A stretch of 64,000 bases of DNA, from the NCBI RefSeq assembly GCF_003018255.1, contig NZ_CP027440.1. One strand, given 5' to 3'. Shown here piece after piece: positions 8,804 to 41,757 of the stretch. Origin of the DNA: Escherichia coli. Lineage in GTDB: Bacteria; Pseudomonadota; Gammaproteobacteria; Enterobacterales; Enterobacteriaceae. The notes beneath the pieces are model-generated. The model worked only from the letters and a program-made list of their open reading frames with translations, ran no database searches and was not told where the DNA came from. The position numbers were made by a program, and so were the translations under genes. Numbering within the stretch: the stretch's first letter is position 1; the number at the start of each line of letters is the position of its first letter.

Positions 8804-10090
8804 ATGAAACTCTACAATCTGAAAGATCACAATGAGCAGGTCAGCTTTGCGCAAGCCGTAACCCAGGGGTTGGGCAAAAATCAGGGGCTGTTTTTCCCGC
8901 ACGACCTGCCGGAATTCAGCCTGACTGAAATTGATGAGATGCTGAAGCTGGATTTTGTCACCCGCAGTGCGAAGATCCTCTCGGCGTTTATTGGTGATGA
9001 AATCCCGCAGGAAATCCTGGAAGAGCGCGTACGCGCGGCGTTTGTCTTCCCGGCTCCGGTCGCCAATGTTGAAAGCGATGTCGGTTGTCTGGAATTGTTC
9101 CACGGGCCAACGCTGGCATTTAAAGATTTCGGCGGTCGCTTTATGGCACAAATGCTGACCCATATTGCGGGCGATAAGCCAGTGACCATTCTGACCGCGA
9201 CCTCCGGTGATACCGGAGCGGCAGTGGCTCATGCTTTCTACGGTTTGCCGAATGTGAAAGTGGTTATCCTCTATCCACGAGGCAAAATCAGTCCACTGCA
9301 AGAAAAACTGTTCTGTACATTGGGCGGCAATATTGAAACTGTTGCCATCGACGGCGATTTCGATGCCTGTCAGGCGCTGGTGAAGCAGGCGTTTGATGAT
9401 GAAGAACTGAAAGTGGCGCTGGGGCTAAACTCAGCTAACTCGATTAACATCAGCCGTTTGCTGGCGCAGATTTGCTACTACTTTGAAGCTGTTGCGCAGC
9501 TGCCGCAGGAGGCGCGCAACCAGCTGGTTGTCTCGGTGCCAAGCGGAAACTTCGGCGATTTGACGGCGGGTCTGCTGGCGAAGTCACTCGGTCTGCCGGT
9601 GAAACGTTTTATTGCTGCGACCAACGTGAACGATACCGTGCCACGTTTCCTGCACGACGGTCAGTGGTCACCCAAAGCGACTCAGGCGACGTTATCCAAC
9701 GCGATGGACGTGAGTCAGCCGAACAACTGGCCGCGTGTGGAAGAGTTGTTCCGCCGCAAAATCTGGCAACTGAAAGAGCTGGGTTATGCAGCCGTGGATG
9801 ATGAAACCACGCAACAGACAATGCGTGAGTTAAAAGAACTGGGCTACACTTCGGAGCCGCACGCTGCCGTAGCGTATCGTGCACTGCGTGACCAGTTGCA
9901 TCCAGGCGAATATGGCTTGTTCCTCGGCACCGCGCATCCGGCGAAATTTAAAGAGAGCGTGGAAGCGATTCTCGGTGAAACGTTGGATCTGCCAAAAGAG
10001 CTGGCAGAACGTGCCGATTTACCCTTGCTTTCACATAATCTGCCCGCCGATTTTGCTGCGTTGCGTAAATTGATGATGAATCATCAGTAA
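8804..10090 (+). CDS. thrC: Threonine synthase
   Basis: 428-aa ORF MKLYNLKDHNEQVSFAQAVTQGL...; immediately follows thrB. Confidence 0.98.
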   Translation: MKLYNLKDHNEQVSFAQAVTQGLGKNQGLFFPHDLPEFSLTEIDEMLKLDFVTRSAKILSAFIGDEIPQEILEERVRAAFVFPAPVANVESDVGCLELFHGPTLAFKDFGGRFMAQMLTHIAGDKPVTILTATSGDTGAAVAHAFYGLPNVKVVILYPRGKISPLQEKLFCTLGGNIETVAIDGDFDACQALVKQAFDDEELKVALGLNSANSINISRLLAQICYYFEAVAQLPQEARNQLVVSVPSGNFGDLTAGLLAKSLGLPVKRFIAATNVNDTVPRFLHDGQWSPKATQATLSNAMDVSQPNNWPRVEELFRRKIWQLKELGYAAVDDETTQQTMRELKELGYTSEPHAAVAYRALRDQLHPGEYGLFLGTAHPAKFKESVEAILGETLDLPKELAERADLPLLSHNLPADFAALRKLMMNHQ

Positions 10091-10110
10091 TATCTATTCA
10101 TTATCTCAAT

Positions 10111-10146
10111 CAGGCCGGGTTTGCTTTTATGCAGCCCGGCTTTTTT
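10111..10146 (+). terminator. thr operon terminator
   Basis: GC-rich hairpin (GCCGGGTTTGC...GCAGCCCGGC) followed by TTTTTT. Confidence 0.8.
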
Positions 10147-10303
10147 ATGAAGAAATTATGGAGAAAAACGACAGGGAAAAAGGAGAAATGCTCAATAAAT
10201 GCGGTAACTTAGAGATTAGGATTGCGGAGAATAACAACTGCCGTTCTCATCGCGTAATCTCCGGATATCGACCCATAACGGGCAATGATAAAAGGAGTAA
10301 CCT

Positions 10304-10600
10304 GTGAAAAAGATGCAATCTATCGTACTCGCACTTTCCCTGGTTCTGGTCGCTCCCATGGCTGCGCAGGCTGCGGAAATGACGTTAGTCCCGTCAGTAA
10401 AATTACAGATAGGCGATCGTGATAATCGTGGCTATTACTGGGATGGCGGTCACTGGCGCGACCACGGCTGGTGGAAACAACATTATGAATGGCGAGGCAA
10501 TCGCTGGCACCCATATGGACCGCCGCCATCGCCGCGCCATAACAAGCACAATGATCATCGTGGCGATCATCGTCCGGGGCCTGACAAACATCATCGCTAA
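10304..10600 (+). CDS. yaaX: Small secreted His/Trp/Arg-rich protein YaaX (DUF2502)
   Basis: 98-aa ORF with signal peptide [23 protein letters not shown], then a low-complexity H/W/R/G/D-rich mature region. Confidence 0.85.
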
Positions 10601-10607
10601 ATATCAA

Positions 10608-10627
10608 TGCCGGATTGCCATCCGGCA
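10608..10627. terminator. Palindromic hairpin between convergent yaaX and yaaA (putative bidirectional terminator)
   Basis: Perfect inverted repeat TGCCGGAT-tgcc-ATCCGGCA in a 39-bp intergenic gap; no strong U-tract. Confidence 0.4.
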
Positions 10628-10639
10628 TTGACTGCAAAC

Positions 10640-11416
10640 TTAACGCTGCTCGTAGCGTTTAAACACCAGTTCGCCGTTGCTGGAGGAAGCTTCATCAAAG
10701 AAGTAACCTTCGCTATTAAAACCAGTCAGTTGCTCTGGTTTGGTCAGCCGATTTTCAATAATGAAACGACTCATCAGACCGCGTGCTTTCTTAGCGTAGA
10801 AGCTGATGATCTTAAATTTGCCGTTCTTCTCATCGAGGAACACCGGCTTGATAATCTCGGCATTCAATTTCTTCGGCTTCACCGATTTAAAATACTCATC
10901 TGACGCCAGATTAATCACCACATTATCGCCTTGTGCTGCGAGCGCCTCGTTCAGCTTGTTGGTGATGATATCTCCCCAGAATTGATACAGATCTTTCCCT
11001 CGGGCATTCTCAAGACGGATCCCCATTTCCAGACGATAAGGCTGCATTAAATCGAGCGGGCGCAGTACGCCATACAAGCCGGAAAGCATTCGCAAATGCT
11101 GTTGGGCAAAATCGAAATCGTCTTCGCTGAAGGTTTCGGCCTGCAAGCCGGTGTAGACATCACCTTTGAATGCCAGAATCGCCTGGCGGGCATTCTCCGG
11201 CGTGAAATCTGGCTGCCAGTCATGAAAGCGAGCGGCGTTGATACCCGCCAGTTTGTCGCTGATGCGCATCAGCGTGCTAATCTGCGGAGGCGTCAGTTTC
11301 CGCGCTTCATGGATCAACTGCTGGGAATTGTCTAACAGCTCCGGCAGCGTATAGCGCGTGGTGGGCAACGGGCTTTGGTAATCGAGCGTTTTCGCAGGTG
11401 AAATAAGAATCAGCAT
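10640..11416 (-). CDS. yaaA: Peroxide stress resistance protein YaaA (DUF328)
   Basis: 258-aa [20 protein letters not shown]... Confidence 0.93.
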
Positions 11417-11485: not shown

Positions 11486-12916
11486 TTACTCCTGCGAAAC
11501 ATCATCCCACGCGTCCGGAGAAAGCTGGCGACCGATATCCGGATAACGCAACGGATCAAACACCGGGCGCACGCCGAGTTTACGCTGGCGTAGATAATCA
11601 CTGGCAATGGTATGAACCACAGGCGAGAGCAGTAATATGGCGGTCAAATTGGTAATAGCCATGCAGGCCATTATGATATCTGCCAGTTGCCACATCAGCG
11701 GAAGACTTAGCAAGGTGCCGCCGATGACCGTTGCGAAGGTGCAGATCCGCAGACACCAGATCGCTTTAGGGTTGTTCAGGCGTAAGAAGAAGAGATTGTT
11801 TTCGGCATAAATGTAGTTGGCAACGATGGAGCTGAAGGCAAACAGAATAACCACGAGGGTAACAAACTCAGCACCCCAGGAACCCATGAGTACCCGCATC
11901 GCCTTCTGGATAAGCTGAATACCTTCCAGCGGCATGTAGGTTGTGCCGTTACCCGCCAGTAATATCAGCATGGCGCTTGCCGTACAGATGACCAGGGTGT
12001 CGATAAAAATGCCAATCATCTGGACAATTCCTTGCGCTGCGGGATGCGGAGGCCAGGACGCAGCCGCCGCTGCCGCGTTTGGCGTCGACCCCATTCCCGC
12101 CTCATTGGAAAACATACTGCGCTGAAAACCGTTAGTAATCGCCTGGCTTAAGGTATATCCCGCCGCGCCGCCTGCCGCTTCCTGCCAGCCAAAAGCACTC
12201 TCAAAAATAGACCAAATGACGTGGGGAAGTTGCCCGATATTCATTACGCATATTACCAGGCTGGTCAGTACCCAGATTATCGCCATCAACGGGACAAACC
12301 CCTGCATGAGCCGGGCGACGCCATGAAGACCGCGAGTGATTGCCAGCAGAGCAAAGACAGCAAGAATAATGCCTGTCACCAGCGGGGGAAAATCAAAAGA
12401 AAAACTCAGGGCTCGGGCAACGGCGTTCGCCTGAACTCCGCTGAAAATTATGCCGTAGGCGATGAGCAAAAAGAGGGCGAACAGAACGCCCATCCAGCGC
12501 ATCCCCAGCCCGCGCGCCATATACCATGCCGGTCCGCCACGAAACTGCCCATTAACGTCACGTTCTTTATAAAGTTGTGCAAGGGAACATTCGGCAAACG
12601 AGGTCGCCATGCCGATAAACGCGGCAACCCACATCCAGAAGACGGCACCTGGTCCACCGGTGGTAATAGCCAGCGCAACGCCAGCCAGGTTGCCGCTACC
12701 CACGCGCGCCGCAAGACTGGTACACAATGACTGAAATGAGGTTAAACCGCCTGGCTGTGGATGAATGCTATTTTTAAGACTTTTGCCAAACTGGCGGATG
12801 TAGCGAAACTGCACAAATCCGGTGCGAAAAGTGAACCAACAACCTGCGCCGAAGAGCAGGTAAATCATTACCGATCCCCAAAGGACGCTGTTAATAAAGG
12901 AGAAAAAATCTGGCAT
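11486..12916 (-). CDS. yaaJ: Sodium:alanine symporter family transporter
   Basis: 476-aa polytopic membrane ORF MPDFFSFINSVLWGSVMIYLLFGAG... Confidence 0.93.
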   Translation of the reverse strand: MPDFFSFINSVLWGSVMIYLLFGAGCWFTFRTGFVQFRYIRQFGKSLKNSIHPQPGGLTSFQSLCTSLAARVGSGNLAGVALAITTGGPGAVFWMWVAAFIGMATSFAECSLAQLYKERDVNGQFRGGPAWYMARGLGMRWMGVLFALFLLIAYGIIFSGVQANAVARALSFSFDFPPLVTGIILAVFALLAITRGLHGVARLMQGFVPLMAIIWVLTSLVICVMNIGQLPHVIWSIFESAFGWQEAAGGAAGYTLSQAITNGFQRSMFSNEAGMGSTPNAAAAAASWPPHPAAQGIVQMIGIFIDTLVICTASAMLILLAGNGTTYMPLEGIQLIQKAMRVLMGSWGAEFVTLVVILFAFSSIVANYIYAENNLFFLRLNNPKAIWCLRICTFATVIGGTLLSLPLMWQLADIIMACMAITNLTAILLLSPVVHTIASDYLRQRKLGVRPVFDPLRYPDIGRQLSPDAWDDVSQE

Positions 12917-28214: not shown

Positions 28215-28288
28215 CCTGCCGGATGCGATGCTGACGCATCTTATCCGGCCTACAGATTGCTGCGAAATCGTAGGCCGCATCCGGCAAA
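28215..28288. repeat. REP/BIME palindromic unit pair in the lspA-fkpB spacer
   Basis: GCCGGATGCGATGCTGACGCATCTTATCCGGCCTAC and inverted GTAGGCCGCATCCGGCA match the REP consensus. Confidence 0.85.
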
Positions 28289-28316
28289 AATCCTCAAAAT
28301 ATAAGAGCAAACCTGC

Positions 28317-29742: not shown

Positions 29743-29773
29743 AAAATGCCGGTCTTGTTACCGGCATTTTTTA
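29743..29773 (+). terminator. ispH operon terminator
   Basis: Hairpin ATGCCGGT-cttgtta-CCGGCAT followed by TTTTTT. Confidence 0.8.
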
Positions 29774-41669: not shown

Positions 41670-41757
41670 ACTGCCGGATGCGGCGTAAACGCTTTATCCG
41701 GCCTACATTCGTGCTCCCGTAGGTCTGATAAGACGCGTCAGCGTCGCATCAGGCAGC
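41670..41757. repeat. REP/BIME palindromic units between caiB and caiA
   Basis: GCCGGATGCGGCGTAAACGCTTTATCCGGCCTAC and GTAGGTCTGATAAGACGCGTCAGCGTCGCATCAGGCA. Confidence 0.85.

Follow-up and report, generated by a model that had tools for sequence, protein, structure and literature searches.

The genes yaaX and yaaA converge in the window (the whole stretch of 64,000 nucleotides of Escherichia coli DNA that we analysed; NCBI RefSeq assembly GCF_003018255.1, contig NZ_CP027440.1). The features of the junction are given in Table 1. The spacer between the two stop codons contains one perfect 28-nt palindrome with two 12-nt arms, complementary at 12 of 12 positions, around a 4-nt loop. As a hairpin it starts 3 nt past the yaaX stop and 8 nt past the yaaA stop. 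An earlier reading of this DNA, made from the sequence only, had pointed to the short gap and had quoted TGCCGGATtgccATCCGGCA as a single perfect palindrome; this sequence is present, and the arms are in fact longer.

Table 1. Features of the yaaX-yaaA junction and neighbouring genes, in positions of the window
Feature	Position	Strand	Remarks
thrC	8804-10090		ORF list
yaaX (DUF2502 protein, 98 aa)	10304-10600	+	ORF list; strain 1190 has the identical sequence, annotated in RefSeq
Hyperdivergent haplotype block	10505-10619		approximate limits; abuts the BIME site
yaaX stop	10598-10600	+	ORF list
yaaX-yaaA spacer	10601-10639		39 bp, ATATCAATGCCGGATTGCCATCCGGCATTGACTGCAAAC; sequence and ORF list
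Palindrome, left arm	10604-10615		12 nt, TCAATGCCGGAT
REP-foot-like core	10608-10627		TGCCGGAT-tgcc-ATCCGGCA; inside the palindrome
Palindrome, loop	10616-10619		4 nt, TGCC
Palindrome, right arm	10620-10631		12 nt, ATCCGGCATTGA
10-mer ATCCGGCATT	10620-10629	+	one copy in the window, within the right hairpin arm
yaaA (peroxide stress protein, 258 aa)	10640-11416	-	convergent with yaaX
yaaA stop	10640-10642	-	8 nt from the hairpin foot
yaaJ	11486-12916	-	ORF list

A scan of the window for perfect hairpins (arms of 10 nt or more, loops of 3-8 nt) found six places, compared with 0.54 hits expected from first-order Markov simulations, in which the expectation falls to 0.05 when the arms must reach 12 nt or more. 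In simulated sequence, palindromes as good as this one are rarer by about 100-fold, and the yaaX-yaaA palindrome is no chance feature. Four of the five other perfect hairpins look, by our reading of the scan, like canonical terminators with A-tract and T-tract. A perfect palindrome at 29743-29770 (AAAATGCCGGT-cttgtt-ACCGGCATTTT) is an apparent bidirectional terminator with proper A and T runs, and its core, ATGCCGG...CCGGCAT, is nearly that of the spacer hairpin.

RNA folding in a 60-nt context gave -19.8 kcal/mol (z -3.6) for the plus strand and -28.7 kcal/mol (z -5.8) for the minus strand, and no shuffled sequence equalled either value. The yaaA-sense RNA (10593-10648, minus strand) reaches its -28.7 kcal/mol with a stem lengthened by pairing of the yaaA stop region GCGUUAAGU with the complement of the yaaX stop region AUUUAGCG. 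An Rfam scan of 10000-11000 (E<=1) detected only two weak and meaningless matches (snoRNA and lncRNA), and a literature search on yaaX revealed nothing on the yaaX-yaaA spacer.

The K-12 allele and the distribution of the two forms

In K-12 (NCM3722) yaaX ends at position 451 of the locus and yaaA starts at 604, leaving a gap of 152 bp. An identical 39-bp spacer in K-12, named beforehand as the outcome that would speak against the sequence-only reading, is therefore not what the alignment revealed, and its estimate of a spacer about 113 bp shorter than in K-12 is right to the base pair. After the yaaX stop, K-12 carries a homologue of the window hairpin, AAATGCCGGGTAACAATCCGGCATT, followed by CAGC and a Z1-type REP, GCCTGATGCGACGCTGGCGCGTCTTATCAGGCCTAC, then a 35-nt linker and an inverted Y-type REP, GTAGGCAGGATAAGGCGTTCACGCCGCATCCGGCA. 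Past the Y REP, K-12 rejoins the window exactly. The 113-bp unit is flanked by a 10-bp direct repeat of ATCCGGCATT, copy 1 being the right arm of the hairpin and copy 2 the tail of the Y REP, and in window positions the BIME junction of K-12-type genomes lies between 10629 and 10630. The BIME is predicted to fold with -55 to -56 kcal/mol. Its annotation in K-12 is REP1, for a REP element that contains two REP sequences, and it belongs to the type BIME-1, which Bachellier and Gilson reportedly defined as well.

BIME-1 consists of a z1 REP, a long L linker and an inverted y REP (Ton-Hoang et al. 2012, PMC3333891). Two inverted REPs with a long linker are absent from the yaaX-yaaA spacer of the window and present in the K-12-type allele, and by this sequence layout the extra 113 bp of K-12 are a REP/BIME element of BIME-1 type. 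The Z1 REP of K-12 is identical to the published REP GCCTGATGCGACGCTGGCGCGTCTTATCAGGCCTACG, one of the three REP queries of Durrant et al. 2024 (PMC11208160). An assignment of the left K-12 REP as Z2 was rejected; it is of the long Z-type (z1) by the definitions and sequences in PMC3333891 and PMC11208160.

Long-allele genomes (K-12, O157, E. albertii and others) have the hairpin AATGCCGG[G/A]TAACAATCCGGCATT directly 3' of yaaX and the BIME 3' of the hairpin; in some genomes of the long haplotype the hairpin is perfect, AATGCCGGATaacaATCCGGCATT. Both alleles thus have the hairpin, which is therefore no remnant of the K-12 BIME. The spacer difference is an ordinary and already known kind of strain polymorphism, because K-12 carries an extra 113-bp BIME beside the same hairpin. 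BIMEs are reportedly a major source of intergenic polymorphism, as Bachellier et al. are said to have described in 1997 in Genetics.

The short family was found with a 100-bp junction query in 1,316 of 5,426 complete E. coli genomes. A 41-nt short-spacer query was covered to at least 80% in 1,199 genomes, most of which have the one-copy 39-bp form, the count also taking in alleles with extra tandem copies whose pieces were joined, e.g. EcN. On these figures, about 22-24% of the complete E. coli genomes carry the short allele; the K-12-type hairpin was detected in 3,899 of the 5,426. We saw the short form in ST131 (O25b:H4), EcN (Nissle 1917), SMS-3-5 and IAI39, and the long form in K-12, IAI1, 042 and O157:H7. 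We take ST131 and EcN to be phylogroup B2, SMS-3-5 and IAI39 F, K-12 A, IAI1 B1, 042 D and O157 E. The spacer is identical in strain 1190, near-identical in SMS-3-5 and in the Escherichia record L009, and the gap of IAI39 also measures 39 bp. Within the short family the outermost two stem pairs vary, and the 10-mer ATCCGGCATT occurs in tandem, with one copy in the window (39 bp), two in N47 (49 bp), three in EcN (59 bp) and five in ECAMP047 (79 bp; locus record L090, 2551-2600); 111 genomes fall within the identity band of the two-copy form.

These counts dispose of the suggestion that the hairpin is a strain-specific terminator. That it is such a terminator, or a palindrome that arose by chance in this genome only, is suggested by the contrast with K-12 alone and is extremely improbable: about 1,200-1,300 complete E. 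coli genomes, as well as two other Escherichia lineages, have the same or a near-identical spacer, and simulated sequence yields palindromes of this quality far too rarely.

Comparison with K-12 also revealed that the two alleles differ beyond the BIME. Identity between window and K-12 is 97-100% across thrC, yaaA and yaaJ, and drops to 79-82%, with two 6-bp indels, over the block at about 10505-10619. The block covers the 3' portion of yaaX and runs into the left side of the spacer; the last 60-90 nt or so of yaaX belong to the short (S) haplotype. The C-terminus of YaaX differs by haplotype, the long (L) form ending in ...RHHKKAPHDHHGGHGPGKHHR. The S block is accompanied by a 38-39-bp spacer in two other Escherichia records (L009 and Escherichia sp. 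E1V33), and the L block by the BIME in E. albertii and Escherichia sp. MOD1-EC7003. K-12 and E. albertii share 95% identity in the block and 96.5% in the BIME, compared with 85-90% in the flanks, so that within the block K-12 is nearer to E. albertii (95%) than to the E. coli of this window (79-82%). The dimorphism is therefore old or was exchanged between lineages, and the sequence comparison suggests a block whose haplotype, whether old or exchanged, goes together with the BIME.

In 660 of 5,424 genomes the locus was not spanned in one piece, and both of these that we opened, R1 and RMDEC465, carry IS621 there. In these strains IS621, a bridge-RNA recombinase element, lies in the Z1 REP at ATCAGGCCT^AC, a published natural IS621 target (Durrant et al. 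2024, PMC11208160); a junction query for IS621 at this locus is confounded by IS621 copies in Z1 REPs elsewhere. In E. coli 042 (locus record L091, 640-700) the sequence reads as IS1397 in the loop of the Y REP.

Likeness of the hairpin to REPs

The REP foot GCCGGAT...ATCCGGC is found in the palindrome at 10609-10626 and in three true REPs of the window, with 0.01 matches expected by chance (REP consensus sequences: PMC11208160). Compared with the true Y-type REPs of the window, the palindrome has the same outer stem and an interior of 4 nt instead of 16-19 nt, so that the REP-like core amounts to 18-20 nt. REPs are imperfect palindromes of 30-40 nt, and a mismatch in the stem is required for binding and cleavage by TnpA-REP (PMC3333891); the spacer palindrome, in contrast, is 28 nt long and paired at every position of its stem. 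Neither GTAG nor CTAC was found beside the hairpin foot on either strand (flanks ATATCAAT... and ...ATTGACTG). In the true REPs at 28218 and 41673, CTAC follows directly, and other REPs, at 41719 and 60716, contain GTAG. The 41-nt query detected one locus per genome, the "2 places" reported being most likely a self-match of the palindrome on both strands, whereas REPs are multi-copy. The hairpin is thus not a bona fide REP and shares only the foot with true REPs.

The BIME at 28218-28291 appears to contain a second REP (about 28275-28291, GTAGGCCGCATCCGGCA) that is internally deleted, with GTAG and foot kept and the interior missing; reduction of REPs to little more than the foot does occur in this genome. 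In Citrobacter, single REP-like palindromes of 31-33 nt with the same foot lie beside the yaaA stop, e.g. TGCCGGATGAGGCGTTAGCCGTCATCCGGCA. Because these full-length palindromes share both foot and place, the Escherichia hairpin may be a shortened descendant of a Citrobacter-like REP palindrome.

It could further be argued that an old single Y-type REP lost its interior by deletion and decayed to the foot, so that the palindrome is nothing more than this foot and has no role of its own. The foot TGCCGGAT/ATCCGGCA, identical to that of Y REPs, the palindromes at the orthologous position in Citrobacter, the deleted REP at about 28275-28291 and the missing U-tract all fit this proposal. We nevertheless consider it very unlikely. 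Stable hairpins of unrelated sequence occupy exactly this position in dozens of genera, an argument that the structure is under selection. The stem is perfect or near-perfect in both Escherichia haplotypes despite about 20% local divergence, and one stem pair shows a double change, being C-G in the window and A-T in locus record L012.

Outgroup spacers and the direction of change

A YaaA scan of the genome collection revealed 80 Enterobacteriaceae loci, none of them from E. fergusonii, E. marmotae, E. ruysiae or E. whittamii. Among 40 non-Escherichia loci with yaaX present and a spacer of 5-60 bp, 38 have spacers of 22-47 bp with one hairpin each, the folding energies ranging from -14.5 to -26 kcal/mol. 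Many of these spacers are canonical bidirectional terminators, as in Kluyvera (AAAAAAAAGCCCGGCATTGCCGGGCTTTTTTT), Enterobacter (AAAACCCCGCCAGCTGGCGGGGTTTGTTT) and Buttiauxella (AAAACGCCAGCATTGCGCTGGCGTTTTGTT); their A and T runs were judged from the sequences, since A-runs pair with T-runs and make U-tract counts derived from minimum free energy folds unreliable. The S-type YaaX tail matches the DHRPGPD[R/W]KHH of 16 outgroup loci from several genera, whereas the L-type yaaX tail lacks 6 bp that are present in outgroup loci. A chimeric query of S-type hairpin and BIME found no full-length match of at least 99% identity among the 5,426 genomes; it also aligned to long-type genomes at 90-93% identity, the 92.9% class being a variant of the long-type hairpin.

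With the single-hairpin state of the outgroups, the outgroup-like S tail and no genome combining S hairpin and BIME, we are fairly confident that the short single-hairpin spacer is ancestral and that the BIME allele is derived.

Salmonella, most Citrobacter, Klebsiella, Trabulsiella and some Kosakonia lack yaaX, and there the thrC-yaaA spacer contains a terminator or REP/BIME elements (outgroup loci L013-L088). In Salmonella and in many or most Citrobacter without yaaX, REP/BIME elements adjoin the yaaA stop, BIMEs of the same layout among them. REP-like insertions were also seen in yaaX-bearing Lelliottia and Buttiauxella agrestis (three loci). The presence of such elements in several outgroups indicates that the convergent junction was colonised by repeats several times.

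How a BIME could have been joined to the hairpin is visible where the long allele passes from hairpin to BIME on the left side. The junction there, ATCCGGCA-TTCAGC-GCCTGATGCG, is an ordinary tail-to-tail junction of Y REP and Z1 REP as in tandem BIME arrays. A query of full Y tail and junction had a match of 97.7% identity in 2,765 genomes, and the same Y-tail-TTCAG(C/T)-Z1 junction lies inside the array between wcaK and wzxC (...GCCGCATCCGGCATTCAGTGCCTGATGCG...). With a standard Y/Z1 junction at this end, the right arm of the hairpin behaves as a Y REP tail. The BIME unit would have been joined to this arm as if to a Y REP tail, which would leave the 10-bp direct repeat ATCCGGCATT. The difference between S and L is one array unit added or removed, a known mode of variation at BIME loci (PMC3333891).

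By the opposite course, an ancestor of the short lineage would have had hairpin and BIME and lost exactly 113 bp by slippage or recombination between the ATCCGGCATT copies, aided by the long inverted repeat of the BIME. A loss had also been suggested in the sequence-only reading, by which the palindrome could be the footprint of a lost REP/BIME-like element. That reading was right in that the extra sequence of K-12 is a BIME and that the core of the palindrome is a Y REP foot. The repeat bounding the 113 bp is perfect, deletion between its copies would give the short architecture exactly, and the predicted fold of the BIME is strong. Searching with a chimeric query, in which the L-type hairpin was joined directly to GACTGCAAAC, we found three K-12-type genomes with the precise deletion, HH97, HH45 and AJ6. 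We opened HH97 and AJ6: in both, the yaaX tail is of the L type and the spacer measures 40 bp and has no BIME, and their yaaX alleles differ from each other. Precise loss between the 10-bp repeats thus occurs in nature and is mechanistically possible. The long allele is moreover present in E. albertii and another Escherichia lineage, and since BIMEs of Salmonella and Citrobacter adjoin the yaaA stop, an older BIME may have existed at the yaaX-yaaA junction.

However, the deletion is rare (3 of 3,899 genomes). The short allele is tied to an outgroup-like block of about 100 bp, with 20% divergence from its counterpart in the long haplotype, and it is therefore not derived from the present long haplotype. 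A short-type hairpin next to a BIME was found in none of the 5,426 genomes, yaaX-bearing outgroups are almost always single-hairpin, and loss takes one event more than a gain in the long lineage. We consider loss unlikely, and the direction given in the sequence-only reading is probably wrong.

More tentatively, and with less than even support, the difference could be described as a two-state haplotype of about 215 bp that crosses species boundaries and comprises a yaaX tail diverged by about 20%, the hairpin and the presence or absence of BIME-1. Phylogroups A, B1, D and E would share the BIME state with E. albertii, and B2, F and the two Escherichia lineages would have the ancestral state. 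The mini-hairpin with its Y REP foot would then have been the docking point for a BIME unit via the Y-tail/Z1 junction, and the BIME allele would have spread by homologous recombination and not by transposition.

Possible 3'-end role and comparison with known systems

As in terminator stem-loops, a GC-rich 12-bp stem lies directly downstream of both stop codons, and the stem of the short allele is stronger than that of K-12. The sequence-only reading had noticed that a strong U-tract is missing. A terminator scan requiring at least 5 T in 8 nt indeed called the hairpin on neither strand, because no stretch of 8 nt contained as many. Past the stem, the tail of the plus strand, CUGCAAAC, has no U-run, and that of the minus strand, UAUUUAGC, has a partial U-tract, UAUUUAG. 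With these tails the hairpin is at best a weak intrinsic terminator, whereas many of its positional counterparts in the 38 single-hairpin outgroup loci have A and T runs.

In K-12, the curated Term-seq 3' ends of Adams et al. 2021 (PMC7815308) include none assigned to yaaX or yaaA. Their supplementary file 2 contains a Rho termination region on the minus strand at MG1655 5300, antisense to yaaX (Rho score 2.95, p 6e-5), which corresponds to about position 10370 of the window. Minus-strand transcription, from the yaaA side, therefore crosses the long spacer of K-12 at least partly and is ended by Rho beyond it.

From its position, its stability, its maintenance in both haplotypes and the terminators of the outgroups, the hairpin is likely a weak bidirectional terminator or a stem-loop protecting 3' ends. 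RNA from either strand would form a stable hairpin, shared by both genes as a 3'-end structure, which would give some protection against 3'-5' exonucleases and would pause or weakly terminate RNA polymerase. The effect is expected to be stronger for yaaA, with its UAUUUAG tail, than for yaaX.

Given the observed anatomy, allele frequencies, haplotype structure and outgroup states, the 39-bp spacer is a common, BIME-free and probably ancestral allele. Its 28-nt palindrome with the Y REP foot as core would be the Escherichia version of the single GC-rich stem-loop found between yaaX and yaaA in almost all yaaX-bearing Enterobacteriaceae, K-12 having the same hairpin plus one 113-bp BIME unit. 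K-12 is then no neutral reference for intergenic lengths, the inserted element being in the laboratory strain and the default architecture in the "short" strain. Strains with the short allele lack one natural landing site of IS621, with its bridge recombinase, and of IS1397. The pair of alleles offers a natural experiment on what a BIME contributes to read-through, antisense transcription and mRNA stability at a convergent junction, and the rare precise deletions, together with the 10-bp repeat in 1-5 copies, illustrate how such a junction changes.

Bidirectional intrinsic terminators between convergent genes are well established, and Ju, Li and Liu are said to have described them by SEnd-seq in 2019. 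The spacer resembles them in having one GC-rich perfect palindrome a few nt past both stops, and the hairpin at this place in Enterobacter, Kluyvera, Buttiauxella, Leclercia and others is a canonical arrangement of A-tract, stem and T-tract. It differs in having no A and T runs beside the stem, whose outer arms read UCAAU/AUUGA, and in falling short of a standard U-tract threshold, and the K-12 data indicate Rho-dependent termination further on, antisense to yaaX.

REPs within about 15 nt of a stop codon reportedly affect translation, a finding attributed to Liang, Rudd and Deutscher in 2015. REPs also act as stabilisers of mRNA 3' ends and as transcription attenuators (introduction of PMC3333891). 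Like these, the spacer contains a stable hairpin with a REP foot less than 15 nt from two stop codons; however, this hairpin is too short, perfectly paired, without GTAG and single-copy.

The BIME locus of K-12 has the same intergenic position, a homologous hairpin and an identical right flank from CATCCGGCATTGACTGCAAAC on. The window lacks the whole 113-bp unit there and therefore also the IS621 target ATCAGGCCTAC and the IS1397 target.

The closest parallel in kind is the polymorphism of BIMEs in presence, absence and copy number (Ton-Hoang et al., PMC3333891), in which likewise one unit is gained or lost beside a REP-type foot and this foot forms the repeat at both ends. At the yaaX-yaaA junction, in contrast, the left partner "REP" is only a mini-palindrome of 20-28 nt without GTAG, and the indel lies in a diverged block of about 100 bp that is common to Escherichia species.
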